Of a stretch of DNA of 64,000 bases, positions 30,328 to 50,875 are shown piece after piece. The notes beneath the pieces are model-generated. The model saw nothing but the letters and a program-made list of their open reading frames with translations, made no database searches and was not told where the DNA came from. The DNA is from an uncultured Chthonomonadaceae bacterium. Its GTDB lineage: Bacteria > Armatimonadota > Chthonomonadetes > Chthonomonadales > Chthonomonadaceae. The stretch lies in NCBI GenBank assembly GCA_963817895.1, contig CAWFQB010000004.1:576001-640000 (forward strand). The letters run 5' to 3'. Position numbers and translations under genes: made by a program. Position 1 is the first letter of the stretch, and every line of letters starts with the position of its first letter.

Positions 30328-30468
30328 CCAGTTTGTCAGGGATTTTCAACACCCGGAACAGGGTGTCTCGCGCCGGATAAAGTTTGCTTCCTCAAGGAAC
30401 GCCAAAAAAAGAGTATACTATTCTATGCGTTTTGTTAGGCGCGTGTTACCTGCTTTGTGGAGGGAACT

Positions 30469-31255
30469 ATGACGGCGACCGTTTCGGCAAAAACCGCTTC
30501 CAAAATCAAAAAACCATATTACCCGACCCGGGATGGAGAACCGATGGCCGAGTTTGATTTGCACTGGGACGTAACCGCATACTGCTGTAATGCGCTGCGC
30601 TCGCGCTATGCGTCTCAGCCCAATGTGTATGTTGCCAGCGACAACTTTCTCTACTATGAACGGGGCCAGCCGAAATCGGTCGTTTCGCCGGACTGTTACG
30701 TGATCTTTGGCGCGGGGATGCGGATGCGCGAACTCGTACAAGGCATGGGAAAACGGCGGACTTCTGCCGGATGTGGTTATCGAAATCACTTCCAAAAAAA
30801 CCCGAAGCGTAGACATAGGGAGTAAGTATCAGACGTATCAGGATGTCTTGCGCGTGTCGGAGTATTTTCTGTTCGATCCGACAGCGGATTATATAGACAC
30901 GCGGCTGCGCGGCTACCGACTCGGCGAGAACGGCTACGAACCGATTGTGCCGGATGCGCAAGGACGTCTGCACAGCGAACAACTTGGGCTGGAACTGACC
31001 GTACAGGGAAATCGCTTGAAGTTTTTCGACGCGCAGACGGGCATGTACTTGCTGACTTACTATGAATTAGAGGCGGCAAAACGGTCTGAAGCGCAACGCG
31101 CCAATGAAGAAGCGCAACGCGCCAATGAAGAAGCGCAACGCGCCAATGAAGAAGCGCAACGCGCCAATGAAGAAGCGCAGGCAAGAGCTGAAGTGGAAGC
31201 GGAAAACACTCGCTTACGGGCGGAACTTGCAAAGTTCCAATCCGGCGGAATGTAG
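30469..31255 (+). CDS. Uma2/DUF820 PD-(D/E)xK endonuclease-fold protein with a coiled-coil tail (frameshift near 30730)
   Basis: YPTRDGEPMAE, VSPDCYV, PDVVIEITSKKT, VSEYFLFDP. Confidence 0.85.
31088..31171 (+). repeat. 21-bp tandem repeat x4 encoding EAQRANE
   Basis: GAAGCGCAACGCGCCAATGAA, four perfect copies. Confidence 0.9.
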
Positions 31256-32582: not shown

Positions 32583-33724
32583 CTCACCTTACGCAGGCGA
32601 GCAGTTTGTAGTCACAGATTTGCTGTTGTTGACGGTAGAATAGTGTCATGGACAAACAACTTCTGGACCTTTACTCAGACTATCTCCTTTGTTCGTTCGG
32701 CCTGACTACCGCGACGGGCCTTTCCACCCTGCTCGACGGCGCGATTAGCCACGACAAGATCACGCGGTTCTTGTCAGGACGTGACTTCACTTCTTCGGAC
32801 CTGTGGCATCTGGTCAAACCCTTGGTACGGCAGGTACAATGTGAAGACGCAGTTCTGGTCTTCGATGACAGCATCGAAGAAAAACTCTATACGGATGAAA
32901 GCGAACTCATTTGCTGGCATTGGGATCATTGCTTCAACCGCAACGTGAAGGGCATCAACATTCTGACCTGTTTGTATCGCGCGCCCACTGCCGCTCTGCC
33001 CGTTGCCTTCGAGTTGATCCAAAAGTCGGCTTGGGAAACGCATAAGAAGACGGGCAAACCCAAGCGAGTGTGTCCCAAGACCAAGAACGAATACCTGCGC
33101 GAGATGGTGGCGCAATGTCAGAAGAACCAATTGCCTTTTCGCTATGTCCTGGCCGACGCTTGGTTCAGCGCGGCAGAAACGATGATGCACCTCAAAAACG
33201 AAGGCAAAACCGACTTTATCTTCCCGATTAAGGCCAACCGCAAGGTGGCTTTGTCCCAGGAAGACAAGTTGGCAGGCCGCTATATGCCCGTATCCTCGCT
33301 TTGCTGCGAAGCGGACGCCGTATTGAACATCTGGCTGGAGGGGGTAAACTTCCCCCTTCTGCTGTGTAAGCAGGTCTTTACAAACAAGGACGGCAGCCAG
33401 GGCGTTCTCTATCTCGTGACGAGTGACACGACGTTAAGCGGTTGCGACATCCAGACGATCTACCAAAAACGGTGGAAAGTGGAAGAGTATCACAAATCGG
33501 TCAAGAGCAATGCGAGTTTCGCCAAGTCGCCGACCAAAACTATTCGGACCCAGAGCAACCATATCTTCGCCTGTTTATGGGCGTATGTGAAGTTGGAAAG
33601 TCTGCGTTTGCAGACGCGCTTGAACCATTTTGCGATGAAAGGCAGGCTCTACAAAGCGGCCCTTGCCAGCGCCTACCGCGAACTACAACTGCTCAAAGGC
33701 ATGAGTGCGCCTGCGTAAGGTGAG
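32583..33724 (+). mobile_element. Complete insertion sequence (IS701-like DDE family) with terminal IRs and a 7-bp target duplication
   Basis: IRL CTCACCTTACGCAGGCG (32583) / IRR CGCCTGCGTAAGGTGAG (ends 33724), flanked by direct repeat TTAGGAG at 32576-32582 and 33725-33731. Confidence 0.9.
32648..33718 (+). CDS. Transposase (IS701-like DDE)
   Basis: ISHDKITRFL, LVFDDSIEEK, YVLADAWF, YQKRWKVEEYHKSVK. Intact 356 aa. Confidence 0.9.
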   Translation: MDKQLLDLYSDYLLCSFGLTTATGLSTLLDGAISHDKITRFLSGRDFTSSDLWHLVKPLVRQVQCEDAVLVFDDSIEEKLYTDESELICWHWDHCFNRNVKGINILTCLYRAPTAALPVAFELIQKSAWETHKKTGKPKRVCPKTKNEYLREMVAQCQKNQLPFRYVLADAWFSAAETMMHLKNEGKTDFIFPIKANRKVALSQEDKLAGRYMPVSSLCCEADAVLNIWLEGVNFPLLLCKQVFTNKDGSQGVLYLVTSDTTLSGCDIQTIYQKRWKVEEYHKSVKSNASFAKSPTKTIRTQSNHIFACLWAYVKLESLRLQTRLNHFAMKGRLYKAALASAYRELQLLKGMSAPA

Positions 33725-34369: not shown

Positions 34370-36616
34370 ATGAAACCCTACTACATCACGACGCCTATCT
34401 ATTATGTAAACGGCCTGCCGCATGTCGGCTCTGCCCTGACGACGGTTGCCTGCGATGTTCTGGCGCGTTATCAGCGCCTGCGCGGACGGGAAACGTTCCT
34501 GCTGACGGGAACCGACGAGAACGCTACCAAAGTGCAGGAAGCGGCGATTGCGGCGAATGTGCCGCCGCAGCAGTTTGTGAACGAACTTGCCGGCGCTTTC
34601 GAGGAGTGCTGGAAGCAGCTGCACGTCGCCTACGACGTATTCATGCGAACGACAGACCCGCGTCACGTTCAGGCCGTACAGACGTTCTTCACGCGCCTGC
34701 TGGAACGCGGGTATGTGTATAAAGATGTGTACGAGGGCTGGTACAGCGTCAGCGATGAGACGTTTTTCCGCGATAGCGACGTGAATATTCAAGATGACGA
34801 ACACGGCACGGCCAAAGAAACGGGCAAGCCTGTTCAGCGAATGAAAGAAGAGAACTATTTCTTTCGATTGTCCGCGTTCGGAGATCGCCTGCTGGCGCGT
34901 ATCGAAGCCGACCCCTCCTTCCTGCTGCCCGAATTCCGCCGCAATGAAGTCGTCGCCTTTGTCAAAGACGGCCTGCGCGATATGTGCATCACCCGTTCCA
35001 ATCAGGGGTGGGGCATCCCCTTTCCCGGCGACGACAGCAAAGTCATTTATGTCTGGTTCGACGCCCTCATCAACTATTTAACGGCGACGGGATGGCCCAC
35101 AGGTCAGTGGTCAGGAGAAAAGGAAGAGCAAGGCCTGGCCCCTGACCACTGGCCCCTGACCACTGACCTGTGGCCTGCCGACGCGCATATCATGGGCAAA
35201 GAGATATTTGTGCGGTTTCATGCCACGCTGTGGCCCGCAATGCTGATGGCGCTGGATTTGCCGCTGCCGAAACAGGTGTTCGCGCACGGCTGGTGGACAC
35301 TGCCGTCCGCGTGGAAATTGAAAGAGGGCGAAAAGGCGGGGAAAAGCACGGGCGGGCTGCCGCATCCGACACGGTTTTCCGAGTTTCTGGCGGAGCGGGC
35401 GGGGATGTCGTTCGATCTGGGCGCGGACGCGCAGCGGTATCTGCTGTGCCGCGAAATGAACTTCGGCATGGATACCGAGTTTACGGTAGAAAACTGCCTG
35501 CGCCGTTTCAATACCGATCTTGCCAACGATCTGGGAAACCTGCTCAACCGTACCATCAACATGATGATGAAGTATTATGACAGCGTGGTTCCGCAAACCC
35601 GTGACCATGACCATGAAATCGCCGCGCTGTCCCTACAGGTACAGGAGGATTATACCAAAGCGCTGGCCGAGTTCCGCCTGAACCTCGCGCTCGAAGCCGT
35701 GTGGAAACTTGTTGCCCGCATGAACAAGTACATTGACGAAAAAGCGCCCTGGGCATTGGCAAAAGCGGCGAACAGCGGGGACGAGGCCGCGAAGGAGCAG
35801 CTTGCCCTTGTGCTGTACACCTGTCTGGAAGCCACGCGAATTGTTTCCCTGCTGATAGCGCCATTCATGCCCGTCGCCGCCGACGCCATCCGCGCCCAAC
35901 TGGGTTTGCGCCAGTCGGCAACGGATGCCCACTGGAACGATCTGATATGGGGCGGGTTGCCTGCGGGTACGCGCGTCAGCGCCCCGCAGCCGATTTTCCC
36001 CCGTTTGCAGGACTTGACCGTAGACAGGGACGCCCACGCCCGGTTGGGAAGCCTGCCGAAAGAGGGGAAAGAAGACAAGGAGACAAGGAGAAGAGGAGAA
36101 GAGGAGAATCAATCTTCAGTATCCAATCTAAAATCTAAAATCGAAAATCCAAAATCGAATATCGCCTCAAAGGAGAATGCGAACGCTGTGAGTGATACAA
36201 CAAATACGGATCAACCAACCACCAACTATCGACCACCAACCACCGTGCCGGGTACGCCGGTCGCGCCGGTTGCCGCCGCGCCGGAAAACGCGCCGATTAC
36301 CATTGATGATTTCATGAAGGTGGAACTGCGGGTGGGCGAAGTGCTGGCGGCGGAGCCGGTTCCCAACGCCACAAAACTGCTGCGCCTGACGGTGCAACTA
36401 AGCGAGGATGATACGCGCACAATTCTGGCCGGTATCGCGGAATTTTATCAGCCGGATGAACTGGTAGGGCGGAACGTTGTTGTTGTGGCGAATTTGCAGC
36501 CGCGCAAGATGCGGGGTATCGAGTCGCAGGGCATGTTACTGGCTGCCGATGTGGAGGGCCGCGCCATACTGGTCAAGCCCGATGGGGATGTTCCTGTCGG
36601 CGCGCGGGTTCGCTGA
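34370..36616 (+). CDS. metG: Methionine--tRNA ligase with C-terminal tRNA-binding (Trbp111-like) domain
   Basis: YITTPIYYVNGLPHVG (HIGH-like), GTDEN, YVWFDALINY, DLANDLGNLLNR, ANLQPRKMRGIESQGMLL. Confidence 0.95.
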   Translation: MKPYYITTPIYYVNGLPHVGSALTTVACDVLARYQRLRGRETFLLTGTDENATKVQEAAIAANVPPQQFVNELAGAFEECWKQLHVAYDVFMRTTDPRHVQAVQTFFTRLLERGYVYKDVYEGWYSVSDETFFRDSDVNIQDDEHGTAKETGKPVQRMKEENYFFRLSAFGDRLLARIEADPSFLLPEFRRNEVVAFVKDGLRDMCITRSNQGWGIPFPGDDSKVIYVWFDALINYLTATGWPTGQWSGEKEEQGLAPDHWPLTTDLWPADAHIMGKEIFVRFHATLWPAMLMALDLPLPKQVFAHGWWTLPSAWKLKEGEKAGKSTGGLPHPTRFSEFLAERAGMSFDLGADAQRYLLCREMNFGMDTEFTVENCLRRFNTDLANDLGNLLNRTINMMMKYYDSVVPQTRDHDHEIAALSLQVQEDYTKALAEFRLNLALEAVWKLVARMNKYIDEKAPWALAKAANSGDEAAKEQLALVLYTCLEATRIVSLLIAPFMPVAADAIRAQLGLRQSATDAHWNDLIWGGLPAGTRVSAPQPIFPRLQDLTVDRDAHARLGSLPKEGKEDKETRRRGEEENQSSVSNLKSKIENPKSNIASKENANAVSDTTNTDQPTTNYRPPTTVPGTPVAPVAAAPENAPITIDDFMKVELRVGEVLAAEPVPNATKLLRLTVQLSEDDTRTILAGIAEFYQPDELVGRNVVVVANLQPRKMRGIESQGMLLAADVEGRAILVKPDGDVPVGARVR

Positions 36617-37731: not shown

Positions 37732-37875
37732 CACCGTCAAGGCCGAACAGGTAGGGGCGCTGCTTGCTGCGCCCTGCATTGCTCATTGGGCGTCACATTC
37801 CAAGAGGGTTCAGCAAGCAGAACCCCTACGATGTACCCTGCCGTTCTACCTTGACGGTGGGATAGTTGGCCTGTA
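37732..37875. repeat. GTAG-type REP doublet (REPIN-like), family B
   Basis: GTAGGGGCGCTGCTTGCTGCGCCCT...AGGGTTCAGCAAGCAGAACCCCTAC inside CACCGTCAAGG / CCTTGACGGTG. An inverted copy is at 40650-40818. Confidence 0.8.
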
Positions 37876-37920: not shown

Positions 37921-39504
37921 TCATCCCTTCCTCATGTATTCATCCACAGTGGCGAGGGCGAACTCGTTGCCGTGCTGACGGGCTTCCAGGGCGATGGACA
38001 GGGCGCGGGCGGTATCCAGACTGGTGAGACAGGGGACTCCGGCTTCTACGGAGGCGCGGCGGATACGCGCTCCCTCGCGCTCGATGCGTTTGTCTTTGGA
38101 AAGCGTGTTGATGAGCAGGCTGATTTCGCCGCTGCGAATCAGGTCAACGATATTGCCCTCGCCCTGATGAAGTTTCTTCACGGTTTCCGCCGGGATGTTC
38201 TGTTCCTGTAGGAAACGGGCCGTACCCTCGGTTGCGATGACGTGAAAGCCCAATCGCGCGAATTCCCGCGCGATGGGAACCACTTCCGCTTTGTCTGCGT
38301 CCGCGACCGTGACAATCATTTTACCCCCGGTGGGAACCCCGATACCTGACGCCACCATCGCTTTGTACAGCGCGAGCGGATACTGCGCGTCCATTCCCAT
38401 GACTTCGCCCGTGCTTTTCATCTCCGGCCCCAAACTGATGTCCACTTTCGCCAGTTTTTGAAACGAAAATACGGGGGCTTTCACGGCGATACTGCCCTGA
38501 TCGGGATGCAGGCCGGATTCGTAACCCTGCACCTTCAGCGACTGGCCGAGCATAACCTTTGTGGCGACGTTGACCATCGGGATGCCGGTAATTTTGCTGA
38601 GATAGGGGACGGTGCGCGAGGCGCGTGGGTTTACTTCCAACACCTGCGCGGTTTGGGTTTCGTGATCCACGACAAATTGAATGTTCATCAGGCCGCGCAC
38701 TTCCAGCCGCTGCGCAAGCCGGGTCGCGCTCCGCACAATCTGCGCGATAATGTCCGGGGAAAGCGATTGCGGCGGGTATACGGCCATGCTGTCGCCCGAA
38801 TGGACGCCTGCCCGCTCGATGTGTTCCATGATTCCGGGCAGCAGGCAGTCTACGCCATCCGAAATAACATCCACTTCCACCTCTTTGCCCAGGATATATT
38901 TGTCCACGAGAATAGGGGCTTTGGGGGATACATCAACCGCGTACTGCATGTAGCGGAGCAGGTCTTCGCGGCTGTACACGATTTCCATCGCGCGCCCGCC
39001 AAGCACATAGGAGGGGCGAACGAGGACGGGGTAGCCGATTTCCTGCGCCACTTCAACGGCGGCTTCCGCATTGCTGATCGCGCGTCCCGCCGGTTTGGGA
39101 ATGTCCAGTTCGCGCAACACTTTTTCAAAGCGGTCGCGGTCTTCGGCAAGGTCAATGCTATCATGGGAGGAACCAAAAATCTTGATACCGGCCTCGTGCA
39201 ACGGTCTGGCAAGGTTGATAGCTGTTTGCCCGCCGAACTGCACGATGACGCCTTCCGGCTGTTCCCTGTCCAGAATGTTCAGCACGTCCTCGACCGTGAG
39301 CGGCTCAAAAAACAGCCGGTCCGACGTGTCAAAATCCGTAGAAACGGTTTCCGGGTTGTTGTTGATAATCAGCGCGTCATAGCCCGCTTCGCGCAGCGCC
39401 CAAACGCAATGCACGGAGCAGTAATCAAACTCAATCCCCTGTCCGATTCGTATCGGCCCCGACCCAATCACCACTATTTTCTTGCGCTGTTCATCCCCGT
39501 TCAA
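37921..39504 (-). CDS. carB: Carbamoyl-phosphate synthase large subunit, C-terminal half (carbamate-phosphorylation plus MGS domains)
   Basis: [68 protein letters not shown] domain. TTG start with a GGGGTG RBS-like site. Confidence 0.92.
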
Positions 39505-39612
39505 AAATACACCCCCGATTTGAGTTGTTAGTTGTTAGGTTGTTAGTTTTGAAGGATACGACAGGCTTTGCAATGTCGCGGATTTTCACCTGACAACCTA
39601 ACAACTAACAAC

Positions 39613-40563
39613 TTATTCCCCGTGCAGCGTTAGCATCTCCTGCACAGATTTTTCTACCGATTGCGCCATGTCCGTCACCGATTGCTGAATGTGGGTGACA
39701 TGCGGCACAGTAGGCTGCACCTGCGCAACGTGGCTGTGCGTGAGCGACGACTGCACCAGGGCGAACGTCTGCTGTATCACTTCCTGCTGCGCTTCCAGAC
39801 GCTTCAAACTGGTTTCCAGCGAACGGGCGTTGTTCAGGCGCGTTTCGCACAGCGTCAGACTTTGCGACAGCGCGTGGCGCACGACGGAATCCTCCGCCTG
39901 CGCCAGTTGTTCGGCGATGCTGTGCCGTTGCGCTTCCAGATTGGTCACGCTGTCGTTTTGAATGGCTTCTTCGATCTGCTGCCTCTGCCGCTCCATCTGG
40001 CGGGCGTTTGCCAGCAGGCCATTCAAGTCGTGCAGGGTATGGCGCAGCGAATTTTCATCCGCGTAGTGTTCGCGGCTGACGAGCCATTGCAGCGTGTTGG
40101 CATACGTGCGCTCGAATGGCGACAGTTTCAGCAGGGGTACGACGGCATTGAGTTCTTCCACGCTGATGGTTCGGCGCAGGACATTGGCCGGACGCCGGTA
40201 CGCGATCTGGTGCGACGTGGACTGCAAAATCAGCAGCCAGGTGAACAGCGCGAACATGATGCCGATGATGGGCGTGACGCTGGCGACAAGAGAACCGGCA
40301 ATCGCTGCCAGAAAAAACGCGAGGAAGCGGGCGCGGGCCACGCTGCCCTGCACGTTGTCGCGCTCCAGCCGATGCTCCAGGGCGCGTCGCTCCTCTTCTG
40401 TCGCGTCGCGCTCGTTCATGCCGCGCACGAAGCCGGGAATGTTATACTGGCTCGACAACGGAAAAAATATATCATCCTGAAGATAGTGGTGCAGGGGCGC
40501 GGCCAGGCGCTCCTCCATCTTCGCGGCGATTTGCGGATCAAGATCATCTAAGCCAATCTGCAT
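39613..40563 (-). CDS. Hypothetical membrane protein (TM hairpin plus long C-terminal coiled coil), paralog 2
   Basis: GGAGG RBS and ATG 40563 (MQIGLDDLDPQIAA); two TM segments; coiled coil ending SVEKSVQEMLTL. Confidence 0.75.
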   Translation of the reverse strand: MQIGLDDLDPQIAAKMEERLAAPLHHYLQDDIFFPLSSQYNIPGFVRGMNERDATEEERRALEHRLERDNVQGSVARARFLAFFLAAIAGSLVASVTPIIGIMFALFTWLLILQSTSHQIAYRRPANVLRRTISVEELNAVVPLLKLSPFERTYANTLQWLVSREHYADENSLRHTLHDLNGLLANARQMERQRQQIEEAIQNDSVTNLEAQRHSIAEQLAQAEDSVVRHALSQSLTLCETRLNNARSLETSLKRLEAQQEVIQQTFALVQSSLTHSHVAQVQPTVPHVTHIQQSVTDMAQSVEKSVQEMLTLHGE

Positions 40564-40649
40564 AAGGGTTGCCTCCCAAAAATCTGCATTTCTGTTTACA
40601 TTCCATACGCAAATCGAGCGGCAATTTACGGCACTTTTCCCCACGAACT

Positions 40650-40818
40650 TATGGGCTACTAACCCATCAAGGTAGGATGGTAGGAAACATCGTAGGGGTT
40701 CTGCTTGCTGAACCCTCCTCAAACGTTGGTGGAACCCTTCTCGAAACCGGGCGCAGCAAGCACTCACGGAGGGCGCAGCAAGCAACGCCCCTACATAACC
40801 ATTCTACCTTGATGGAGG
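40650..40818. repeat. GTAG-type REP doublet/triplet (REPIN-like), family B, inverted relative to 37732-37875
   Basis: CCATCAAGGTAGGATGG...GTAGGGGTTCTGCTTGCTGAACCCT...AGGGCGCAGCAAGCAACGCCCCTAC...CCATTCTACCTTGATGG. Confidence 0.8.
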
Positions 40819-40819
40819 A

Positions 40820-41905
40820 CTAACAGGAAGAGCGCAACGTCAAAACTTCTTCTACCGCGCTTTCTACGGCGATTGTTTGCCGGTTCATCTGCGTTACCGA
40901 CTCGGTAATGTCGTTCATGGCGAATTCGGTATTGGTGTCGGCGCGTAAATCTGCGGTAAGGTGCATACGTCCCAGTGAGGACAGCGCGGACGAAAGCGTT
41001 TGCGTAATGGCTTCCTGCTGCGTGTTCAGGCGTTCCAGTCCGATTTGCAGGTTGTGGGCGTTCTCGATGCGCGACAACACCATGCGGCGGCTCTGCTCAA
41101 GGGAAGCGCGGGTCATCGGATCGGTAGCCGTTTCCAGTCGTGATTTTAACTGGTCATATTCCGTTCGCAGTTCGGGTACGACATTGGCTCCAAGCAGGGG
41201 AATCAGGCTCAGGCGTTGTTCTTCCAGTTGTCGGCTGCTTTGCATCAGGTCATTGAGTTGGCGCAATGTCTCGCGCATCGTTTGTTCTGTGTCGGAATTG
41301 GGCTGCGCGCGGGCAAGAAACAGCAGCACGTCGCAATACACGCGCTCGGCTCGCGTCAGGGAGAGGGACGCGAAAACGTCTTTCAAACCTTCCGGCCGCA
41401 ATTCCGTGATTTTAACGGATTGCGGCGCGGCATTGAGGGCGATGTGGTTTCCAGCCGATGCAGCCGCCAGCGAAACCATCAACCACAGTAGATAGAAGCC
41501 CGCAGAGGGATTACCCCGGCTGCCAAATACTATTATTGAAGCCGTGAATCCCAACACCGGCGCGACAAGCGCGTTGAGGGTCATCAGAGCCGCCACCTGT
41601 CGTGATTTGAGACGCTCTTTTAGAAGGGCGCGACAGCCGATTCCGGCTCCCACTCCCCACGTCAGTCCCCATACAGCAAACGGCGACCACCAGATATGTC
41701 GCAAATAACTATGAGAAACCAGCATGATGGCAAGCGGCAGGCCGAGCATCGGCGGCACCGCAAGCGCCGCCGCAAGCGCCGCGTGTCTGCGTTGAGACAA
41801 ACGGGGACGTGGACGGGAAGCCGACACGCGGACGGCCTGAGCGGGAACCATAGCCGCATATTGGGCGGCTATGCGCGGGTCTATTTCGTCAAGAGCGATA
41901 CGCAT
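40820..41905 (-). CDS. Hypothetical membrane protein (about four TM segments plus long C-terminal coiled coil), paralog 1
   Basis: MRIALDEIDPRIAA; several hydrophobic segments; C-terminal helical region alignable with 39613-40563, ending AVESAVEEVLTL. Confidence 0.75.
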   Translation of the reverse strand: MRIALDEIDPRIAAQYAAMVPAQAVRVSASRPRPRLSQRRHAALAAALAVPPMLGLPLAIMLVSHSYLRHIWWSPFAVWGLTWGVGAGIGCRALLKERLKSRQVAALMTLNALVAPVLGFTASIIVFGSRGNPSAGFYLLWLMVSLAAASAGNHIALNAAPQSVKITELRPEGLKDVFASLSLTRAERVYCDVLLFLARAQPNSDTEQTMRETLRQLNDLMQSSRQLEEQRLSLIPLLGANVVPELRTEYDQLKSRLETATDPMTRASLEQSRRMVLSRIENAHNLQIGLERLNTQQEAITQTLSSALSSLGRMHLTADLRADTNTEFAMNDITESVTQMNRQTIAVESAVEEVLTLRSSC

Positions 41906-41911
41906 GTGAAA

Positions 41912-43654
41912 TCATTTCTCGTCTTCGGTATCGTAGCACGAATAGAAATAGGGCGTGGCGGCCTCGAATTCCGCCGCGCACGTATCTACCATCTTATACG
42001 TTGGCACAATGCCAAGACGCTTCCGCAACGCGCGCAGTTTCATTTCCGGTATCTCGGCAATTTCCGCAAGGGTTCGATCTGAAAAACCGGCGCGTTTCGC
42101 TTCGCGCAGGAGATTAATAGTTGAGAGGTTGAGAGTTGAGAGTTGAGAGTCTCCCGGTGTTCGGTCTCCTTTTCTCCTTTTCTCCTTTTCTTCCTCTTCT
42201 TCCTCAACCAGTGCCGCCAGTGCCTTACAATGCTCTTTCAGGCGTTGTTCCAGTTGGACGAGGCCGCTGAGTTTGCGCAGAAACCAGGGGTCTATGTTGC
42301 TCAGGGCGTGGATTTCTTCGATCATCATGCCCCGGCGCAGGGCTTCCGTGATGGCCCACAACCGTTCGTCGTTGGGGACGCGAATGGCTTCTTCCAACTG
42401 CATGTCGCTGAACTGGTGGGCGGTTTTGTTGGACAATCCATAAATGCCGACTTCGAGGGAACGAATGGCTTTCATCAGGGCTGGCTCGAAGGCGCGATCA
42501 ATCGCCATCACTTCGCCGGTCGCCTTCATCTGCGTGTTGATCTGCCGATCCGCGAACGTAAACTTGTCGAACGGCCAGCGCGGAATTTTCACGACGCAGT
42601 AGTCCAGCGCAGGTTCAAAGCAGGCGAGAGTTTTGCGTGTGACGGCGTTTTCGATCTCGTCAAGACGCAGGCCAATGGCGATTTTAGCGGCCACGCGGGC
42701 AATGGGATAGCCGGTCGCTTTGGAAGCCAGCGCGGATGAGCGCGACACGCGGGGATTCACTTCGATGATGTAGTAACGGAAGGAGTGAGGGTCAAGGGAT
42801 AGTTGCACGTTGCAGCCGCCCTCGATGCCCAACGCGCGAATGATTTTCAGGGAGGCTGTGCGCAGCATCTGGTATTCTTTATCCGAAAGCGTTTGCGAGG
42901 GGGCAACCACGATGCTGTCGCCCGTATGAACGCCCATCGGATCGAAGTTTTCCATGTTGCAGACGGTAATGGCGGTATCGTTGGCGTCGCGCATCACCTC
43001 GTACTCGACCTCTTTCCAGCCGGAAAGGTAGCGTTCCACCATCACCTGATGCCGCATGGACAGGGCAAGCCCGCGTCTAGAAATTTCGCGTAGTTCCGTT
43101 TCATTATACGCAATGCCGCCGCCCGTTCCGCCCAGCGTGTACGCCGGACGAACGATTAGCGGCCAGATACCCGATGCGAGCGGGGCGTCCAGATGTGATT
43201 CGTCCGTGACGATCCACGATTCGGGAACGGGTTCGCCCAACTCGCGCATCAGGTCGCGGAACTCCTCGCGGTCTTCGGCTTTGCGGATGGAAGCGAGCGG
43301 GGTTCCGAGCAGGCGCACGTTGTACTTTTCCAACGCGCCCGCTTCAGCAAGCAGGGTGGCGAGATTCAGGCCGGTTTGCCCGCCGAGCGTCGCCAGCAGG
43401 CCGTCGGGACGTTCGCGCTCGATAATGCGGGTAGCAAACTCGACATTGAGCGGCTCGATGTACACGCGGTCGGCGATTTCCACGTCCGTCATAATGGTGG
43501 CGGGATTGGAATTGATGAGGACAACGGAAATGCCCTCTTCGCGCAGGGCGCGGCAGGCTTGCGTTCCCGCATAATCGAACTCAGCGGCCTGCCCGATGAT
43601 AATGGGGCCGGAACCGATGAGCATGACTTTCTTGATGGTCGTATCTCTGGGCAT
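41912..43654 (-). CDS. carB: Carbamoyl-phosphate synthase large subunit, N-terminal half (carboxyphosphate plus oligomerisation domains)
   Basis: [71 protein letters not shown], ending [32 protein letters not shown]. Confidence 0.93.
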
Positions 43655-43672: not shown

Positions 43673-45709
43673 TTATGGTTGCGTCGGCTGCGCCTGATAC
43701 AACAACAGGCGAAATTTGCCGAACACAACGAAGCGCCGGATGCAATGTTGGGGCGTTATCCATTGCGGATAGTGGCGTTCCCACCAGCGCAGGGGATTGG
43801 GGCCTTCAAAGATCAGGATGTAGCAGGGACGGCCCGCAAAAGTTTCTACCGGCCTGTCGTCATTGCACAGCCCGGGGATGACATTGATTGCTGTAAATTG
43901 GCTGCGCAGGGTCAATCCCGGCGCGGGATCGCCAATCAGCACGGCGTTGGCAGGCAAATTTTGCTGCATCCAGCGGTCACAGTCGCGCTGCGTGTACCGG
44001 ATATGGCCCGCCCAATCCAGCAGCCAACCGGCGTTGATAATCCCCCACAGCAGCATGAGTGATATGGGAAGCAGGCTGCGCTTATGCGCTTCGCCGACGC
44101 TGCTCATGAACCGGCTTATACCATCTAAATTCTTTTGCCGGTTAGCAAGGCCTGCGGCCAACCGTCCTGCGGACGAAGAAACAGGTTGTGTCCTCGGACT
44201 GTTATTTGGTTGTTCAGACTGGCCGACAGTTGGCGTTGCGAACCCAAGCTGTAGCAACAAGCCCGTTCCAATCGTTATTCCGTAAAGCAGCGCATCCGCG
44301 CCCGTACTGCGATGTTGCAGAGCCGCTTCCAGCAAATGATAAATCAGCAACGTCCCTAACAATGCGCGACGGATAGGCGAGGCGGTTATGATACGCGCCA
44401 CTTCATGAATATGCGCCAGCGCCAGCGCGGCGAGCGCGGCGAGCGCGGGATAAAACAACACATAATAACGGGGCGGCGAATAGCGCACAAGGGCAAACGC
44501 TGTAAGCATGATACCCACCCACAGCATCAAAAAGCGAATCGCCTGTACGCTATAACGAGCGGCTTGCGGTTGCGTCGCGTCCATTCGCAGGCGCAAATCG
44601 GGCCATGCAAGCAGCCATGCCAGCGCGAGCGTCCACTGCACGGGCGAGTGGCGGAACAGATAGGAAGAAAACCCCCGTTCGTTGCCGAACAGCGAGTGTC
44701 CAATGTTGTGCCGGATTTCTTCCAGACCGCGCGGCATCAACTGCTGCGCCATATAAAAGTGGTTGACGGTTTGCAGGGACGCGCGATTGGGCAGATACCA
44801 GACGCAAATGTAGACAACAAGGCCAAGCGCAAGTCCCGTCAGCAGGCCAAAAAGTGGCAACTGCGACAGGGATTGCGGCGCGGGCAGGCTGTCAGCGGAA
44901 CGTTTCGTAACGTTGGAATGTTGGCCGCGCCATGCCAGAAACAATAGCGCGGGCAGCAGCAGCGCGCTCAGTCCGCGAATGGCATACGCCGCCATCATAA
45001 GCAATCCACAACATGCCATCCAGAAGGCGTTGGAGTACCTCACCCCAACCCCTCTCCTGGCCGCTCCTTCGTCGCTAGGAGAGGGGCTATTTAGATTTAC
45101 CCCCCTTTTGATTGTTCCTTCGTCATCAAGAGTGGGGCTTTTTATGGCAACGCCGGAACTATTCGGCGCGTTGTTAGCATCAATGGATGCGTTTTCAATA
45201 ACGACGGGAAAGGCGCGGACGAATGCATAAAAGCAGGCGACAAGCGGCAACTGCGCGGGCGTGTCCATTAGCGCCATTCGATTGTACAGCAGGTTGATAT
45301 GGTCGAAACCGAGCAATAGCAGCGCGGGCAAAGCCACTCGCGTTCCGAAAGCGCGGCGGCAGGCGGCGTAAAACAGCCCCATTGTGGCGAAACTGAACAC
45401 GACCGAAATCATGCGCGACGCCACAAGGCTGACACCGAACACGCGGAAAACGCCAACCTGTATAACGTGCAGCAGGGGCATAATCAGGGCGTTATGAAAA
45501 TTATCGCCCACAACGTGGATACTGCCTGTTAAAATCAGGTTACGCGCGTCATGGCAATAGAAGGCCTCGTCCGTGACAAGTTCGCTGCTCCATGTCAGTC
45601 CGGCGTAGCCGTCGCTGTCGAGCCAGAGGACGCGCAGCAATGCCAGCAAACTTACAATGAAACCGATACAAAGGATTCTGGTAAGCTGCCGGCGTTGCGT
45701 TTTAGACAT
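43673..45709 (-). CDS. GT-C fold membrane glycosyltransferase (ArnT/PMT_2, GT39/83-like)
   Basis: DEAFY after the first TM, FGVSLVASRMISV, NRMALMD, PPRYYV; polytopic. Confidence 0.75.
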   Translation of the reverse strand: MSKTQRRQLTRILCIGFIVSLLALLRVLWLDSDGYAGLTWSSELVTDEAFYCHDARNLILTGSIHVVGDNFHNALIMPLLHVIQVGVFRVFGVSLVASRMISVVFSFATMGLFYAACRRAFGTRVALPALLLLGFDHINLLYNRMALMDTPAQLPLVACFYAFVRAFPVVIENASIDANNAPNSSGVAIKSPTLDDEGTIKRGVNLNSPSPSDEGAARRGVGVRYSNAFWMACCGLLMMAAYAIRGLSALLLPALLFLAWRGQHSNVTKRSADSLPAPQSLSQLPLFGLLTGLALGLVVYICVWYLPNRASLQTVNHFYMAQQLMPRGLEEIRHNIGHSLFGNERGFSSYLFRHSPVQWTLALAWLLAWPDLRLRMDATQPQAARYSVQAIRFLMLWVGIMLTAFALVRYSPPRYYVLFYPALAALAALALAHIHEVARIITASPIRRALLGTLLIYHLLEAALQHRSTGADALLYGITIGTGLLLQLGFATPTVGQSEQPNNSPRTQPVSSSAGRLAAGLANRQKNLDGISRFMSSVGEAHKRSLLPISLMLLWGIINAGWLLDWAGHIRYTQRDCDRWMQQNLPANAVLIGDPAPGLTLRSQFTAINVIPGLCNDDRPVETFAGRPCYILIFEGPNPLRWWERHYPQWITPQHCIRRFVVFGKFRLLLYQAQPTQP

Positions 45710-45750
45710 GGACTGCTTTCAAAGCTATTCTCGTTCGCGTCGCTCGCAGG

Positions 45751-46521
45751 CTACTCCCGTTGATTTGGGTTGCCCGCTTCCGTCACGTCGTACTTGCTTT
45801 CGTGATACAACACGCGCACAAAGCGTCCCAAAACGTTTGCGCGGGGCAGCGTTCCCCAGAATCGGCCATCATCGCTGTTGTTGCGATTGTCGCCAAGCAC
45901 AAACAAATGTCCGGGTGGAACGCGCAACGGCTCGTATACGGCATAAGGAAAGTCATACCCCATGCGGTTGTCTACGGGTAGGAGGGGGTAGGCTTCCGGC
46001 AACGCCTTACCGTTCACAAGCAGAGTATTCCCCTGCAACTGAATGGTATCGCCGGGGAGTCCCACCACGCGCTTAATCAAAATCTCGGACCTGCCCGAAC
46101 TGGCGTTACCCGATCCGTTTTGATCCGCCCCGTCCGTGTCTTCATCCGCGTCTTGACTGGTATGGCTGCGCGTGGCCGCGTCTACCGTGTCGCTTGAAGT
46201 TAATTGCGAACCTTCGGGGGGTGGCGTGTTCGGCATCCGAAAAACAATAATGTCGCCGCGTGAGGGCATCGCGCCGAACGGATACGCCAGCCATTCACGC
46301 ATGGTGACAATATGGTCACCGGGGCGCAGATTGGGTTCCATAGACTCCGAGGGAATGAAATTGTGCGTGAATCCTGCCGCAATAAAAATGGTGACGGTCA
46401 GCAGCAGGTACATGAAGCCCTGCCGAATTTTGTGTCGGTACGCGCTGCCGTTTTCAGGCTCAGGATGCGTCTTGTGGCGTATCCTTTCTGTTTTCGATTT
46501 TGTTAGCAATGCCGCTGTCAT
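45751..46521 (-). CDS. lepB: Signal peptidase I
   Basis: IPSESMEPNL (Ser), RGDIIVF, LIKRVVGLPGD (Lys), FVLGDNRNNSDDGRFWG. Confidence 0.92.
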   Translation of the reverse strand: MTAALLTKSKTERIRHKTHPEPENGSAYRHKIRQGFMYLLLTVTIFIAAGFTHNFIPSESMEPNLRPGDHIVTMREWLAYPFGAMPSRGDIIVFRMPNTPPPEGSQLTSSDTVDAATRSHTSQDADEDTDGADQNGSGNASSGRSEILIKRVVGLPGDTIQLQGNTLLVNGKALPEAYPLLPVDNRMGYDFPYAVYEPLRVPPGHLFVLGDNRNNSDDGRFWGTLPRANVLGRFVRVLYHESKYDVTEAGNPNQRE

Positions 46522-47674
46522 TGTCCGCTCCCCTGATTCTGGTCAGGACATCTACGAACTCGCGAAAAAAATACGCGCTGTCGGTCGGGCCGGGTGACGC
46601 TTCCGGGTGATATTGTATCGAAAATATCGGAAGCTCTTTGTGGCGCAAACCCTCTACCGTGCCGTCGTTGAGGTTGACGTGCGCCACTTCCATGCCGTTT
46701 TGCAGGCCGTCCGGGTCAACGGCATAGCCATGATTCTGAGACGTGATATACACCTTGCCGGTGCGCAGGTCTTTCACGGGATGGTTGCTGCCCCGATGCC
46801 CGAACTTCAGCTTGAAAGTGCGGCTGCCGAAGACATGCCCCAGAATCTGGTTGCCCAGACAAACGCCCATGATGGGTTTTTTGCCGACCAGTTCGCGTAC
46901 CGTTTCGACCACATAGCCTAATTGTGCCGGATCGCCTGGACCAGGAGACAACATAATCCCGTCGGGGTTCTCACGCAGAAGTTCCGTCGAAGTCGCTGTA
47001 CATGGATATACGATAGTCTCACAGCCCAGATTAGCCAGACTGCGCACGATGTTGTACTTTACGCCACAGTCCAGCAGAGCAATCCGCAAAGGGGCTTCCG
47101 CTCCTGACGGTTGGGCTGTATCATCGGCAATCGCGCCCGGTAACTGTAGCGGGAGGGGCTGTTGGCTGTGCGCAAGCCACCAGTACGGCTGTTCCGTCGT
47201 TACCTGACGATTGAGGTCTACACTCGCATACCGTTGGGAAGACTGCAAACGGCGGCTCGCTTGTTCCACAGTTTCATCGGTTGTGATTGTACCCATCATC
47301 ACGCCCCGAACGCGCAGGGCGCGGGTGAGGGCGCGGGTATCCACGTTTTTGATCGCCACAATGTTCTTTGACTTCAAATAGGCGTCAAGGTTCATTGCGG
47401 ATCGCCAGTTGCTCGGCGCGTCTTCACATTCACGGACGACAAAGCCCTCCACCTGTATGCGGCGCGACTCGAAATCATCGGGATTGATGCCGTAGTTGCC
47501 GATGAGCGGATAGGTGAGCGTGACGATCTGCCCCGCATACGAGGGATCGGTTAAAATCTCCTGATACCCGGTCATGCCGGTATTGAAAACGACTTCGCCC
47601 GTCGTCCTGCCGGACGCGCCGAGCGATTCGCCCGCAAATACGGTTCCATCTTCCAGTACAAGAAATGCTTTCAT
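46460..47674 (-). CDS. carA: Carbamoyl-phosphate synthase small subunit
   Basis: LVLEDG, GEVVFNTGMTGYQEILTDPSY, LSPGPGDP, GVCLGNQ, QNHGYAV, QYHPEASPGP. Confidence 0.95.
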   Translation of the reverse strand: MKAFLVLEDGTVFAGESLGASGRTTGEVVFNTGMTGYQEILTDPSYAGQIVTLTYPLIGNYGINPDDFESRRIQVEGFVVRECEDAPSNWRSAMNLDAYLKSKNIVAIKNVDTRALTRALRVRGVMMGTITTDETVEQASRRLQSSQRYASVDLNRQVTTEQPYWWLAHSQQPLPLQLPGAIADDTAQPSGAEAPLRIALLDCGVKYNIVRSLANLGCETIVYPCTATSTELLRENPDGIMLSPGPGDPAQLGYVVETVRELVGKKPIMGVCLGNQILGHVFGSRTFKLKFGHRGSNHPVKDLRTGKVYITSQNHGYAVDPDGLQNGMEVAHVNLNDGTVEGLRHKELPIFSIQYHPEASPGPTDSAYFFREFVDVLTRIRGADNDSGIANKIENRKDTPQDAS

Positions 47675-47695
47675 TCGGCTCCTAAACATGGCAGG

Positions 47696-49345
47696 TCAGG
47701 CCAGCGCGTCTTCACCATACAAACATGCGCCACCAACCCAGGTGCCTTCAACCTTTAACTGTTCCCATTCATCAATGGGTGTTTGCGTGGGATCGGCGGA
47801 AAGCAGCACAAAGTCGGCCCATTTGCCCGTTTCCAGACTACCCCGGTCGCGATCCGTGTGCGTGGCATAAGCGGGCGCGGAAGTGTAGTTGTATAAAGCA
47901 ATGTCGGGCGCGAGACATTCTGCGGCATCCAGTATATGCCCGGACGGAGTTTTGCGCTCAATGGCGGCTCTCAGTCCGTCGAGGGGCGCGCCGGGTACGA
48001 CCGGGCAATCGGAACTGAACGCCTGCGCGACATTTTGCTGATCCAGTGTGGCATACGGCGACAGGCGATTGGCGCGTTCTTCGCCCAATGCCATGACATA
48101 CGCATCCCCCAATTGCGACAAAAACTCCGGCTGCCCGATGCTCCACACGTTCTGGCGACGCAAGCGGGCGATTAAATCCGGGTTGAGCAGCATACAGTGT
48201 TCGATGCGGTGGCCGGGACGGAAACGGGTGTTTTCCCGCTGCGCGTCGGCATACGCCGACAAAACTAGATCAACCGCCCGGTCGCCAATCGCGTGTGTGG
48301 CGATTTGCCAGCCCGCAAGGTGCGCCTTCAGGATGTACTCGCGCAATTCGTCCGGCGGATGCAGGGGGATGCCACAGTCGTTAGGCTGTCCGGCCATGCC
48401 CTCAAACGGTTCGGTCAGCCAGCACGTCCGGGTCGTAATCGCGCCGTCGCTGAACAGTTTCGCCTGCCCGACATGGAACTGATGCCAGCTTAACCCCTGC
48501 CACTCCGGCTGCAAATCATCCGGATTTGGAATAACTCCGTCACCAACATGCTTCATCACTTCGGCCCACGCGACCATCCCATTCGCGCGTACCTGCAACA
48601 CTTTGTCCGCAGCCGCGCGGGCAAAAACGCCAATATCATTTGTGGCTAAATTCGAGTCCGTCGCGCTCGTGATGCCGCGTTCCAGCAGATATTGGTTGGC
48701 GCGTCCCAATGCGGCAACCTGTTCGTCCGGGCTGACGTGTGGCAAAATACGGTCAAGATCGTTCCAGCTTGCGGTTTCCAGCAGAACGCCGTTCGCTTCC
48801 CCCTGCGCGTCGCGGACAATTTCGCCGCCAACCGGGTTCGGCGTATCATTTGTAATGCCAAGCATTTGCAGGGCGCGGGTATTGACCACTGCGGCGTGTC
48901 CCGACGTATGCACAATCCGAACCGGTATTGCGGTAGAGACTAAATCCAGATCGTGTCGCGTGAGATGTTCCGGTGGCGACAGTTTGTTCTGGTCGTAGCG
49001 GTTGCCCTGAACACACGTCAACTCTGGTCGCGCATCCAATCGCTCCCGCAACAACCGAATAATGTCCCGCTTATCCTTTACGGGCGGCGAAGCCAGATTG
49101 ACATGCCCTAAATTGATGCCGAGCCACTGAATGTGCAGGTGACAATCGAAAAATCCCGGCAACAGCGTTCGTCCACGCAAATCTATCTGCCGCGTTCCCG
49201 CGCCTGCCAGATTCCGAACCTCATCATTGCTTCCCACCGCCACAATGCGCCCGTCCTGCCCGACCGCAACCGCCTGCGAAGACAACTCCGCGCCCGTCAT
49301 GGTCAGCACATTGCCGTTATAAAGAATTGTCGCCGTGTTAGCCAT
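47696..49345 (-). CDS. Amidohydrolase_3 (YtcJ-like) metal-dependent hydrolase
   Basis: PGFFDCHLH, SGHAAVVN, KLFSDG, HAIGDRA, HRIEHC, SSDCP, GKWADFV. Confidence 0.88.
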   Translation of the reverse strand: MANTATILYNGNVLTMTGAELSSQAVAVGQDGRIVAVGSNDEVRNLAGAGTRQIDLRGRTLLPGFFDCHLHIQWLGINLGHVNLASPPVKDKRDIIRLLRERLDARPELTCVQGNRYDQNKLSPPEHLTRHDLDLVSTAIPVRIVHTSGHAAVVNTRALQMLGITNDTPNPVGGEIVRDAQGEANGVLLETASWNDLDRILPHVSPDEQVAALGRANQYLLERGITSATDSNLATNDIGVFARAAADKVLQVRANGMVAWAEVMKHVGDGVIPNPDDLQPEWQGLSWHQFHVGQAKLFSDGAITTRTCWLTEPFEGMAGQPNDCGIPLHPPDELREYILKAHLAGWQIATHAIGDRAVDLVLSAYADAQRENTRFRPGHRIEHCMLLNPDLIARLRRQNVWSIGQPEFLSQLGDAYVMALGEERANRLSPYATLDQQNVAQAFSSDCPVVPGAPLDGLRAAIERKTPSGHILDAAECLAPDIALYNYTSAPAYATHTDRDRGSLETGKWADFVLLSADPTQTPIDEWEQLKVEGTWVGGACLYGEDALA

Positions 49346-49374
49346 AAAAACCTCGAAAAGAAACTCAATGATGA

Positions 49375-49583
49375 ACCGCGAAACACGCGAAATACACGAA
49401 AAGACAAAAAGAAGAACAAAAGAGAATAGACAGGATTAACAGGATTTTCAGGATGAACAGGATTATATGCAGAGAAGGTGGGGCAGTCCTTTTCTCTCCT
49501 CTGTGAAACCTCTGTGTCTCTGTGTCTCTGTGGTGAACGTCTGTTTTTGTCCTCTTTTCGTTTGTTTCGCCTGTTTCGCGGTT
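49375..49583. repeat. Nested inverted 9-mer tandem repeats
   Basis: AACCGCGAAACACGCGAAATACACGAAA / TTTCGTTTGTTTCGCCTGTTTCGCGGTT enclosing ACAGGATTA-type and CTCTGTGT-type repeats. The left arm also occurs at about 3376-3403. Confidence 0.7.
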
Positions 49584-50875
49584 TATAATCGTATGACGCG
49601 CCCGCCGACAACCGTAAAGGCCGCTTTGCCCTGCACGTTCATGCCGTGAAAGGGCGTGTTTTTGGATTTAGACTGCACTTTGTCGCGGTCTATAGCCCAT
49701 TCGGTTTCAAGGTCGAATACGGCTATATCGGCGGGCGCGCCGGTTTGCAGCGTTCCCACGCCTTCAGGCATGTTCAGGACGCGGGCGGGAACATGCGTCA
49801 TTTTGGCGATGGCGTCCGAAAAGGTTAAAATACCGGGCTTGACCAGCGTTGTGTACACCAGCGGGAAGGAGGTTTCCAACCCTAAAATGCCGAAGGGCGC
49901 GGCATCGAACTCTACTTCCTTTTCGTATTCGGCGTGGGGCGCGTGGTCGGTCACGATGCAGTCAATGGTTCCGTCCGCCAATCCCTGCTTCACGGCTTCA
50001 CAGTCTTCCGGTGTGCGCAGGGGCGGGTTCATTTTAGCGTCGGTTTTGTAGCCCATCACGGCCTCATCCGTCAGCGTCCAGTGGTGGGAGCAGGCTTCCC
50101 CGGTCACGTTGATGCCGTCCGCTTTAGCGCGGCGGAGTAGTTCAACGGTTCCCGCTGTGGAGATGTGCAGCAGGTGCAAATGGCAGCCCGTCAGTTGCGC
50201 CAGCAGGATATTACGGGCAACGGCAATGTCTTCGGCAACGCGCGGTATACCGGGAATCCCCAACACCGTTGCCGTGTAGCCCTCGTTCATCGCGCCTTTT
50301 TCGGTTAATTGTTTGTCTTCGTTGTGCGTCATCAGGCACAGGTCGAGCATCCGGCAGTATTCCATAACGCGGCGCATGGTTTCGGCGTTTTGCAGGGGAA
50401 AAGCGTCGTCGGAAATGGCGCAGGCTCCCGCCGCTTTCAATTCCGCCATTTCGGTCAATTGATCTCCCTGCATCGCCCGCGTTGCCGCGCCAATCGGATG
50501 CACCCGCGCGCTGCCGACCTGCTCCGTCCGCTCCAAAATCTGGCGAACAACCGCAGCCGTATCAATTGCGGGATTGGTATTGGGCATACAACAGACTCGC
50601 GTAAATCCGCCCGACGCAGCCGCCCTCGTTCCACTTTCGATGTCTTCCTTATACTCCTGCCCCGGTTCCCGCAAATGGACGTGAATATCTATCAGGCCGG
50701 GCGTAACCACCATGCCCCGTGCGTCCAGCTTCTCCGCGTCGGCAAACTCCGAACCCGCCGCGCCCGGATCAACAATGCCCGCAACACGGTCGCCGTCAAT
50801 CAGCACATCTGCAACACAGTCTATATTTTGTGATGGGTCAACAACGCGCCCGCCAGATAGAATTTTTTTCAACAC
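49583..50875 (-). CDS. pyrC: Dihydroorotase
   Basis: PGLIDIHVHLREPG, CMPNTNP, HIST, KMNPPLR, TDHAPH, SKNTPF. Confidence 0.95.
   Translation of the reverse strand: MLKKILSGGRVVDPSQNIDCVADVLIDGDRVAGIVDPGAAGSEFADAEKLDARGMVVTPGLIDIHVHLREPGQEYKEDIESGTRAAASGGFTRVCCMPNTNPAIDTAAVVRQILERTEQVGSARVHPIGAATRAMQGDQLTEMAELKAAGACAISDDAFPLQNAETMRRVMEYCRMLDLCLMTHNEDKQLTEKGAMNEGYTATVLGIPGIPRVAEDIAVARNILLAQLTGCHLHLLHISTAGTVELLRRAKADGINVTGEACSHHWTLTDEAVMGYKTDAKMNPPLRTPEDCEAVKQGLADGTIDCIVTDHAPHAEYEKEVEFDAAPFGILGLETSFPLVYTTLVKPGILTFSDAIAKMTHVPARVLNMPEGVGTLQTGAPADIAVFDLETEWAIDRDKVQSKSKNTPFHGMNVQGKAAFTVVGGRVIRL

Follow-up and report, generated by a model that had tools for sequence, protein, structure and literature searches.

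Split genes for the carbamoyl phosphate synthetase large subunit in Chthonomonadales and their probably reversible history in Armatimonadota

Split forms of carbamoyl phosphate synthetase (CPS) occur in some archaea. The closest described counterpart of the locus reported here is the divided CPS of Aquifex aeolicus, in which separate genes code for GLN, CPS.A and CPS.B (Ahuja et al. 2001, as cited in PMC6022934); according to the same source, a 41-kDa CPS of Methanobrevibacter smithii works as a dimer. Here we analyze a 64,000-nucleotide (nt) stretch of the genome of an uncultured Chthonomonadaceae bacterium of the phylum Armatimonadota (contig CAWFQB010000004.1, positions 576,001 to 640,000; hereafter the window), in which carB, the gene for the large CPS subunit, is carried as two half-length genes with other genes between them. 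Our analysis indicates that this locus very probably encodes a three-subunit CPS of the Aquifex type (CarA + CPS.A + CPS.B), derived from a carB gene that was divided a single time, no later than in the ancestor of the order Chthonomonadales, that the gap has served as a slot for other genes, and that the split is probably reversible. Split CarB itself is already known; the history of fission and re-fusion is the new part.

Two half-length carB genes in the window and in its order

The minus strand of the window carries two separate stop-free open reading frames (ORFs) that correspond to the two parts of carB and are separated by a gap of 2,407 nt. The upstream gene, carB-N (CPS.A; 41912..43654, 580 amino acids (aa)), encodes a pre-ATP-grasp domain, the bicarbonate-phosphorylating ATP-grasp half and the oligomerisation domain (PF25596, PF02786 and PF02787). 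The downstream gene, carB-C (CPS.B; 37921..39504, 527 aa, starting with TTG), encodes a pre-ATP-grasp domain, the carbamate-phosphorylating ATP-grasp half and the MGS allosteric domain (PF25596, PF02786 and PF02142), so that according to Pfam both synthetase halves, the oligomerisation domain and the MGS domain are all present. When aligned to Escherichia coli CarB (PDB 1bxr), carB-N covers residues 1-478 and 486-552 and carB-C covers residues 556-1056, which places the break in the linker between the duplicated halves, with nothing missing. These results bear out a first-pass annotation of the window, which had described two intact carB halves with the same ends, about 2.4 kb apart, broken exactly between the two ATP-grasp halves and enclosing two paralogous membrane genes. 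Each half scores separately above the cut-off of NF003671, and TIGR01369, the model for single-chain CarB, matches twice in separate frames, both times under its cut-off; a canonical one-chain CarB of about 1050-1070 aa is not encoded here. The ATP-grasp active-site motifs of both halves are identical or near-identical to those of E. coli in the alignments, and we take the residues that they contain to have their usual roles in the two domains. A purine-rich sequence resembling a ribosome-binding site (GGGGGTG, 39510..39516, minus strand) lies 5 nt before carB-C, as the first-pass annotation had noted, and the start codon of this half is TTG rather than ATG. The sister genome G002 has the same TTG start, preceded by GAAGGGAG.

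The oligomerisation domain of carB-N also contains an in-frame low-complexity insert of about 38 aa, at about residues 475-512 (42110-42230). This insert is partly built of CTCTCAA-like heptamer repeats, the doubled unit of which matches 26 times in the genome, and similar repeat-derived stretches are found in a MetRS-like ORF at about 36110-36245.

Both halves are under strong purifying selection. Ratios of nonsynonymous to synonymous substitution rates (dN/dS, estimated by the Nei-Gojobori method at dS of 0.5-1.3) are 0.058 and 0.082 for carB-N and 0.070 and 0.087 for carB-C, against G002 and G001, respectively, compared with 0.10 for carA. A whole-genome search of the source genome (G000, family f1, 14 contigs, 81% complete) found only the two halves and one carA, and no second carB; a full-length carB was likewise not found in the relatives G001, G005 and G013, which are 97-99% complete. 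The suggestion that a second, full-length copy might have released the halves from selection is thus not borne out. We regard as negligible the probability that the split reflects an assembly error or an insertion-disrupted pseudogene in decay, even though the assembly is incomplete, shares at best 0.06 of its words with any public run, and in one other genome (G157) an apparent split proved to be a frameshift-ridden assembly. Gene order around the split is the same in G001 and G002, and a contig from the independent run X4 (record 26), belonging to a relative with about 90% likeness, spans the carB-C start and the two intervening genes in order; contigs of relatives at 80% likeness were mixed, no single one spanning the whole stretch. 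dN/dS values under 0.1 argue against a pseudogene, and both misassembly and chance are rejected because 36 of 38 genomes in the order show the break at the same place.

This recurrence emerged from a search of relatives, in which the C-half was found in all 41 genomes of the order, within a frame of 375-667 aa in 40 of them and of 1124 aa in one (G014). Among the 38 whose DNA was checked, 36 are split at this very point, G014 is fused, and in G011 a contig end interrupts the gene; G016 was also seen to be split outside this count, and G012 and G027 were judged by frame length only. The split is therefore an old feature of Chthonomonadales. The first-pass annotation had considered the arrangement unusual, a view that we have to reverse since a split carB is the rule in this order and in seven Armatimonadota families outside it.

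Genes and repeats between the halves

Two minus-strand genes occupy the gap. orfA (40820..41905, 361 aa) starts 6 nt past the carB-N stop and codes for a membrane protein with a coiled-coil C-terminus and predicted hydrophobic segments at residues 45-63 and 104-122. orfB (39613..40563, 316 aa) codes for a two-helix membrane protein, predicted to form a helical hairpin (hydrophobic segments 75-93 and 95-113) followed by a long coiled coil. The two genes are paralogous (28% identity, E = 3e-22), as previously noted; for orfB, comparison with homologs favors the ATG at 40563 over the TTG at 40785 given in the ORF list. Both are under purifying selection (dN/dS of 0.21 for orfA and 0.09-0.16 for orfB), and neither matches a Pfam or NCBIfam family, although a profile of the family matches 517 cluster representatives. 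An AlphaFold model of orfB, with a predicted local distance difference test score (pLDDT) of 89 with a 129-row alignment and 54 without one, combines a membrane hairpin with a long helical bundle, for which Foldseek (best E 0.28) and VIA-align (best Z 11.5, root-mean-square deviation 6.8) return generic helical bundles only. By language-model features, the nearest named cluster is PspM/Rv2743c (PF25587; 0.87, 40% of members), a protein that also has two membrane helices. PF25587 was not among the best 25 of 28 Pfam families for 24 family members (E<=0.1), and no pspA-like neighbor was recognized by eye in 11 short loci, which were not scanned with a library, or among the window neighbors. PMC11237479 describes PspM as confined to mycobacteria and corynebacteria. 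The link to PspM, unconfirmed by Pfam or neighborhood, is a lead only; our best guess is that the intervening proteins may act as a membrane-bound scaffold or in envelope stress, in a role unrelated to CPS.

Could these proteins instead be functional partners of the split enzyme, i.e. a membrane anchor or assembly scaffold, which would explain their position? In f1, most of the genomes examined carry a member of the family either in the gap or next to the halves (15 copies at 12 loci, usually one per slot and two in the source genus and in G020). Both genes are selectively maintained, orfA follows carB-N closely, and G014, the sole fused f1 genome, yielded no member of the family. This last observation is also expected from a deletion that re-fused the halves, and the wider distribution speaks against a partnership. 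The family occurs in 35 of the 151 phylum genomes; it was found in none of the 28 genomes searched in the split families f6 (0/14), f9 (0/3), f19 (0/4) and f29 (0/7), and it is present in the fused family f8 (4/5), which indicates that it is not needed for the split enzyme. Moreover, in G023 the family gene sits far from both halves, and slots of other lineages hold different genes or are nearly empty (about 70 nt in G033, G034 and G039). We thus find a partnership quite improbable; orfA and orfB look like passengers of the slot, in line with the earlier description of them as unrelated to carB, since the family does not follow the split.

The contents of the slot vary across lineages. Directly behind carB-N, four f1 members (G004, G005, G017 and G018) and eight members of f3 (G028, G029, G030, G031, G032, G035, G036 and G037) carry a methyltransferase gene, and this common occupant fits one ancestral split in the order. 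In G023, whose carB halves are themselves separated, the methyltransferase and the membrane gene have moved together (L227, G023:C4:1575368-1579315). Elsewhere the slot holds unrelated genes (L093, L094, L039 and L081), namely a DNA-methylase-like ORF in G046 and small unknown genes in G105, G013 and G161.

Repeats also populate the interval in the window. A pair of GTAG palindromes (40692..40794; repeats I2, I4 and I5), presumably of the repetitive extragenic palindromic (REP) type, lies between orfA and orfB, within an element at 40664-40815 flanked by an 18-nt inverted repeat. A second similar pair is located at 37751-37829, and the palindrome pattern has 99 matches in the genome. The spacer before carB-C contains an inverted pair of TAACAAC-like heptamer-type repeats (39523..39613; I3, 24-nt arms, 96% complementary), the doubled unit of which matches 151 times. 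A promoter and terminator scan gave counts at chance level (6 against 7.7 and 25 against 19.7, respectively).

Distribution and history of the split in the phylum

We searched 151 Armatimonadota genomes with each half, which gave matches in 144 and 146 of them, and took DNA for 118, hand-picked to cover families rather than drawn at random. Seventy-five are split, 41 are fused and 2 are cut by contig ends. Outside the order, seven families are split in all genomes checked: f6 (7/7), f9 (3/3), f11 (5/5), f14 (6/6), f16 (7/7), f19 (4/4) and f29 (7/7); f11 groups with a record titled Fimbriimonadaceae in the C-half tree. The break point is constant, as 51 of 51 pattern-matched split N-halves end 7-30 residues past a Y-x-Y-S/G motif. 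Fourteen named control genomes were uninformative on the split or fused state, stops being read through in that search. We found no literature on split or re-fused carB in Armatimonadota in a search covering few subscription journals and no supplements, and a word search of PMC11237513 found neither "carbamoyl" nor "carB" as whole words.

Rejoining of the halves after transcription into one chain, by stop read-through, frameshifting, splicing or an intein, might be imagined for G033, G034 and G039, in which only about 70 nt separate them; yet the C-half of G039 is preceded, at a distance of 5 codons, by a second in-frame stop. In the window, 2.4 kb and two conserved genes intervene, and neither half matches an intein or intron family. 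In five of the seven split genomes assembled as a single contig (G082, G138, G164, G169 and G172) the halves are more than 1 Mb apart, the other two having them close, which excludes read-through or cis-splicing as a general mechanism and indicates that joining in cis is unnecessary. We consider such rejoining highly implausible.

Several candidates were reclassified on inspection. Family f11, which first appeared to represent a third architecture because its match ended at residue 333, has ordinary split C-halves with an insert; in L081-L085 these 15-45 additional residues lie between the ATP-grasp domain and an AVKAPVFSF motif. In G041 and G069, what looked like a split is a fused gene at a contig end, and L138 is fused as well. 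The fused CarB of L138 (4488 onward) is without about 40 residues of the oligomerisation domain, and the N-half of G111 is similarly short. In G051 (L253), the N-half ends a 936-aa open frame that extends about 380 residues further upstream than usual, possibly a fusion or simply an open stretch. A second, distant full-length carB (46-51%) occurs in four genomes, at L096 (G056), L097 (G059), L095 (G041) and L057 (G032), in three cases directly beside the native carB; G032 is the exception within the split group, carrying this fused copy besides its halves. An origin of the split by duplication and reciprocal loss is not supported here, given that these extra copies form a distant clade of their own and that both split halves group with their own families.

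Phylogenetic analyses indicate that the state of carB changed several times. All trees are FastTree or LG+G4 gene trees with weak deep nodes, in which vertical descent only was considered, and the N-half and C-half trees broadly agree by family. The C-half tree of 135 rows (FastTree; G011, G034, G037 and ten named loci having been dropped as incomplete, near-identical or redundant) needs at least five state changes, and the joined N+C tree of 56 rows needs six. Holding all split rows together, with G014 left out, was rejected by the approximately unbiased (AU) test (p=7e-8, 34 rows; p=9e-76 without f19), which argues for repeated change.

The clearest candidate for a reversal is G014. Its fused gene falls inside f1 in the C-half tree (support 99), with f1 in the N-half tree (96), and with f1 in the joined tree (100/99; order 100/100), and a constraint uniting the order's split rows to the exclusion of G014 was rejected (AU p=0.041). 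The surrounding operon is kept in order (pyrC, amidohydrolase, carA, signal peptidase, glycosyltransferase), nothing lies between the halves, and the intervening membrane family was not found in this 98% complete genome. The simplest reading, which we hold to be probable, is that G014 re-fused its halves by deletion of the slot and in-frame joining.

Linker lengths bear on whether re-fusion extended further. We measured the linker from the Y-x-Y-S/G motif to the start of the second half, leaving uncounted 11 rows without the motif and counting by hand four linkers with a GAGP variant missed by the pattern (23 residues in G044; 19 in each of G093, G133 and G173). The linker is 19 residues long in all eight measured loci outside Armatimonadota. 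Among the 19 fused rows that fall outside the split-rich clade, 17 have linkers of 19-21 residues, the exceptions being f5 (24) and f12 (40). On the other hand, it reaches 23-90 residues in 20 of 20 measured genomes of the ten fused families placed among split lineages in the trees (f4, f7, f8, f20, f23, f24, f27, f28, f31 and f32); in G014 it is 22. A tentative extension, which we judge possible and somewhat less likely than its negation, is that carB split early, in an ancestor shared by a large part of the phylum, and that this split was undone at least twice, recently in G014 and anciently in the ancestor of the ten families, the long linkers being scars. A single clade of long-linker rows was not rejected (p=0.34), so that one old re-fusion is possible. 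Short repeats landing in the linker may drive both fission and re-fusion. Several points speak against this wider re-fusion. The long-linker kin are not independent and amount to one to three events; the fused f36 (G111) nests among split lineages with an ancestral-length linker of 20 residues; and several long linkers read like translated short repeats, e.g. PTPNPQLPTP in G072, short repeats having likewise entered carB-N of the window. Plain insertion into a tolerant loop explains the long linkers equally well.

The linker of f36 and the repeat-like sequences, together with the long linkers of f5 and f12 outside the clade and the weakly resolved deep nodes, which differ between runs, lend some weight to a history in which re-fusion never occurred, all fused forms being ancestral and the gene having split many times at a permissive linker. 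In that case, however, G014 implies that at least three lineages of the order (f3, f2 and f1 apart from G014) split separately at one site, and the same methyltransferase would have to land in the gap of both f1 and f3. In addition, 20 of 20 fused relatives of split lineages have long linkers, compared with the 19 or 19-21 residues of most rows elsewhere. A history without any re-fusion appears unlikely to us.

Operon context, proposed mechanism and comparison with known systems

The two halves belong to a pyrimidine-pathway neighborhood on the minus strand. carA (46460..47689), encoding the glutaminase small subunit, scores above the cut-off of TIGR01368 and is the only copy in the genome; its true start is probably a few codons downstream of the called one. 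It retains the motifs GVCLG at 275 and YHPEA at 360, in which we presume the Cys-His-Glu triad to lie. Upstream of carA are pyrC (dihydroorotase) and an amidohydrolase gene (47696..50875), syntenic in relatives. Between carA and carB-N are genes for signal peptidase I and a PMT-family glycosyltransferase (43673..46521; PF10502 and PF13231), which hold the same position in most relatives examined, the fused G014 included. Further away in the window, a 356-aa ORF at 32648-33718 presumably encodes a DDE transposase, and two overlapping ORFs in different frames (30457-31255), in which an AQRANEE tail is repeated, resemble what we take to be one Uma2-type endonuclease gene broken by a frameshift.

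We propose that carB was cut once at the linker, after which the halves would be translated separately, presumably from a common transcript here, and would assemble non-covalently with CarA, as in A. aeolicus. CarA would release ammonia from glutamine, CarB-N would make carboxyphosphate and carbamate, and CarB-C, which carries the allosteric domain, would phosphorylate carbamate. The gap would have become an ordinary gene slot, holding first an ancestral methyltransferase gene and then the membrane coiled-coil gene; in the source genus, the former is missing from the slot and the latter is present twice. The state would be reversible, G014 having most likely joined its halves again. The earlier proposal of an enzyme made of CarA and two CarB halves is supported by the lack of another carB, by purifying selection and by the order-wide break, the assembly being what we infer from these.

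A few points weigh against this model. Since G000 is only 81% complete, a full-length carB may have been missed there. For G014, support from the AU test is modest (LG+G4; the bootstrap had not settled completely), and the branch is long (0.5); such a branch would be expected to draw the gene away from f1, not into it. Finally, isolated Aquifex CPS.A and CPS.B each catalyze both partial reactions (as given in PMC6022934), which makes a strict division of labor conjectural. Together with the M. smithii dimer and the fact that the halves are unlinked in several families, this behavior would also suit two stand-alone homodimeric mini-CPSs that form no heterodimer. But both halves co-occur in nearly all genomes searched, each keeps its own domain (oligomerisation in N, MGS in C), the two half trees are broadly congruent at family level, and a single carA is present, so that we view independent homodimers as very improbable and retain the three-subunit enzyme.

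If correct, these findings have several implications. Half-length carB genes, found in about two thirds of the Armatimonadota genomes examined, should be annotated as functional, as far as their sequences indicate, and not as fragments or pseudogenes. The probable re-fusion of a split essential gene comes with matched split, scattered and fused relatives, a series in which the role of the covalent link in channeling ammonia and carbamate can be examined. The case also cautions against treating gene fission as irreversible when it serves as a phylogenetic marker. The passenger genes represent an unnamed family of membrane coiled-coil proteins with at least 517 clusters. If the wider re-fusion holds true, a single enzyme of core metabolism would offer a natural series of fission, scattering of genes and re-fusion. 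Most worth following is that carB changed its state repeatedly, and probably reversibly, in this phylum.

How does this system compare with those already described? Like the E. coli CarA-CarB enzyme, it has the same domain order and active-site motifs; unlike it, it consists of two chains in place of one of 1073 aa, with the repeat-derived insert in the oligomerisation domain. It shares a half-size synthetase chain with the M. smithii CPS, which is a dimer of one small chain, whereas here two different specialized halves are kept. The closest likeness is to A. aeolicus CPS, which also has three genes, a large subunit divided into its synthetase halves and a glutaminase subunit. In contrast to Aquifex, the halves remain in a pyrC-carA operon with passengers in Chthonomonadales and are unlinked in other lineages, and the split, likely of independent origin, has been traced through an order and seven families besides it, together with its putative reversals.

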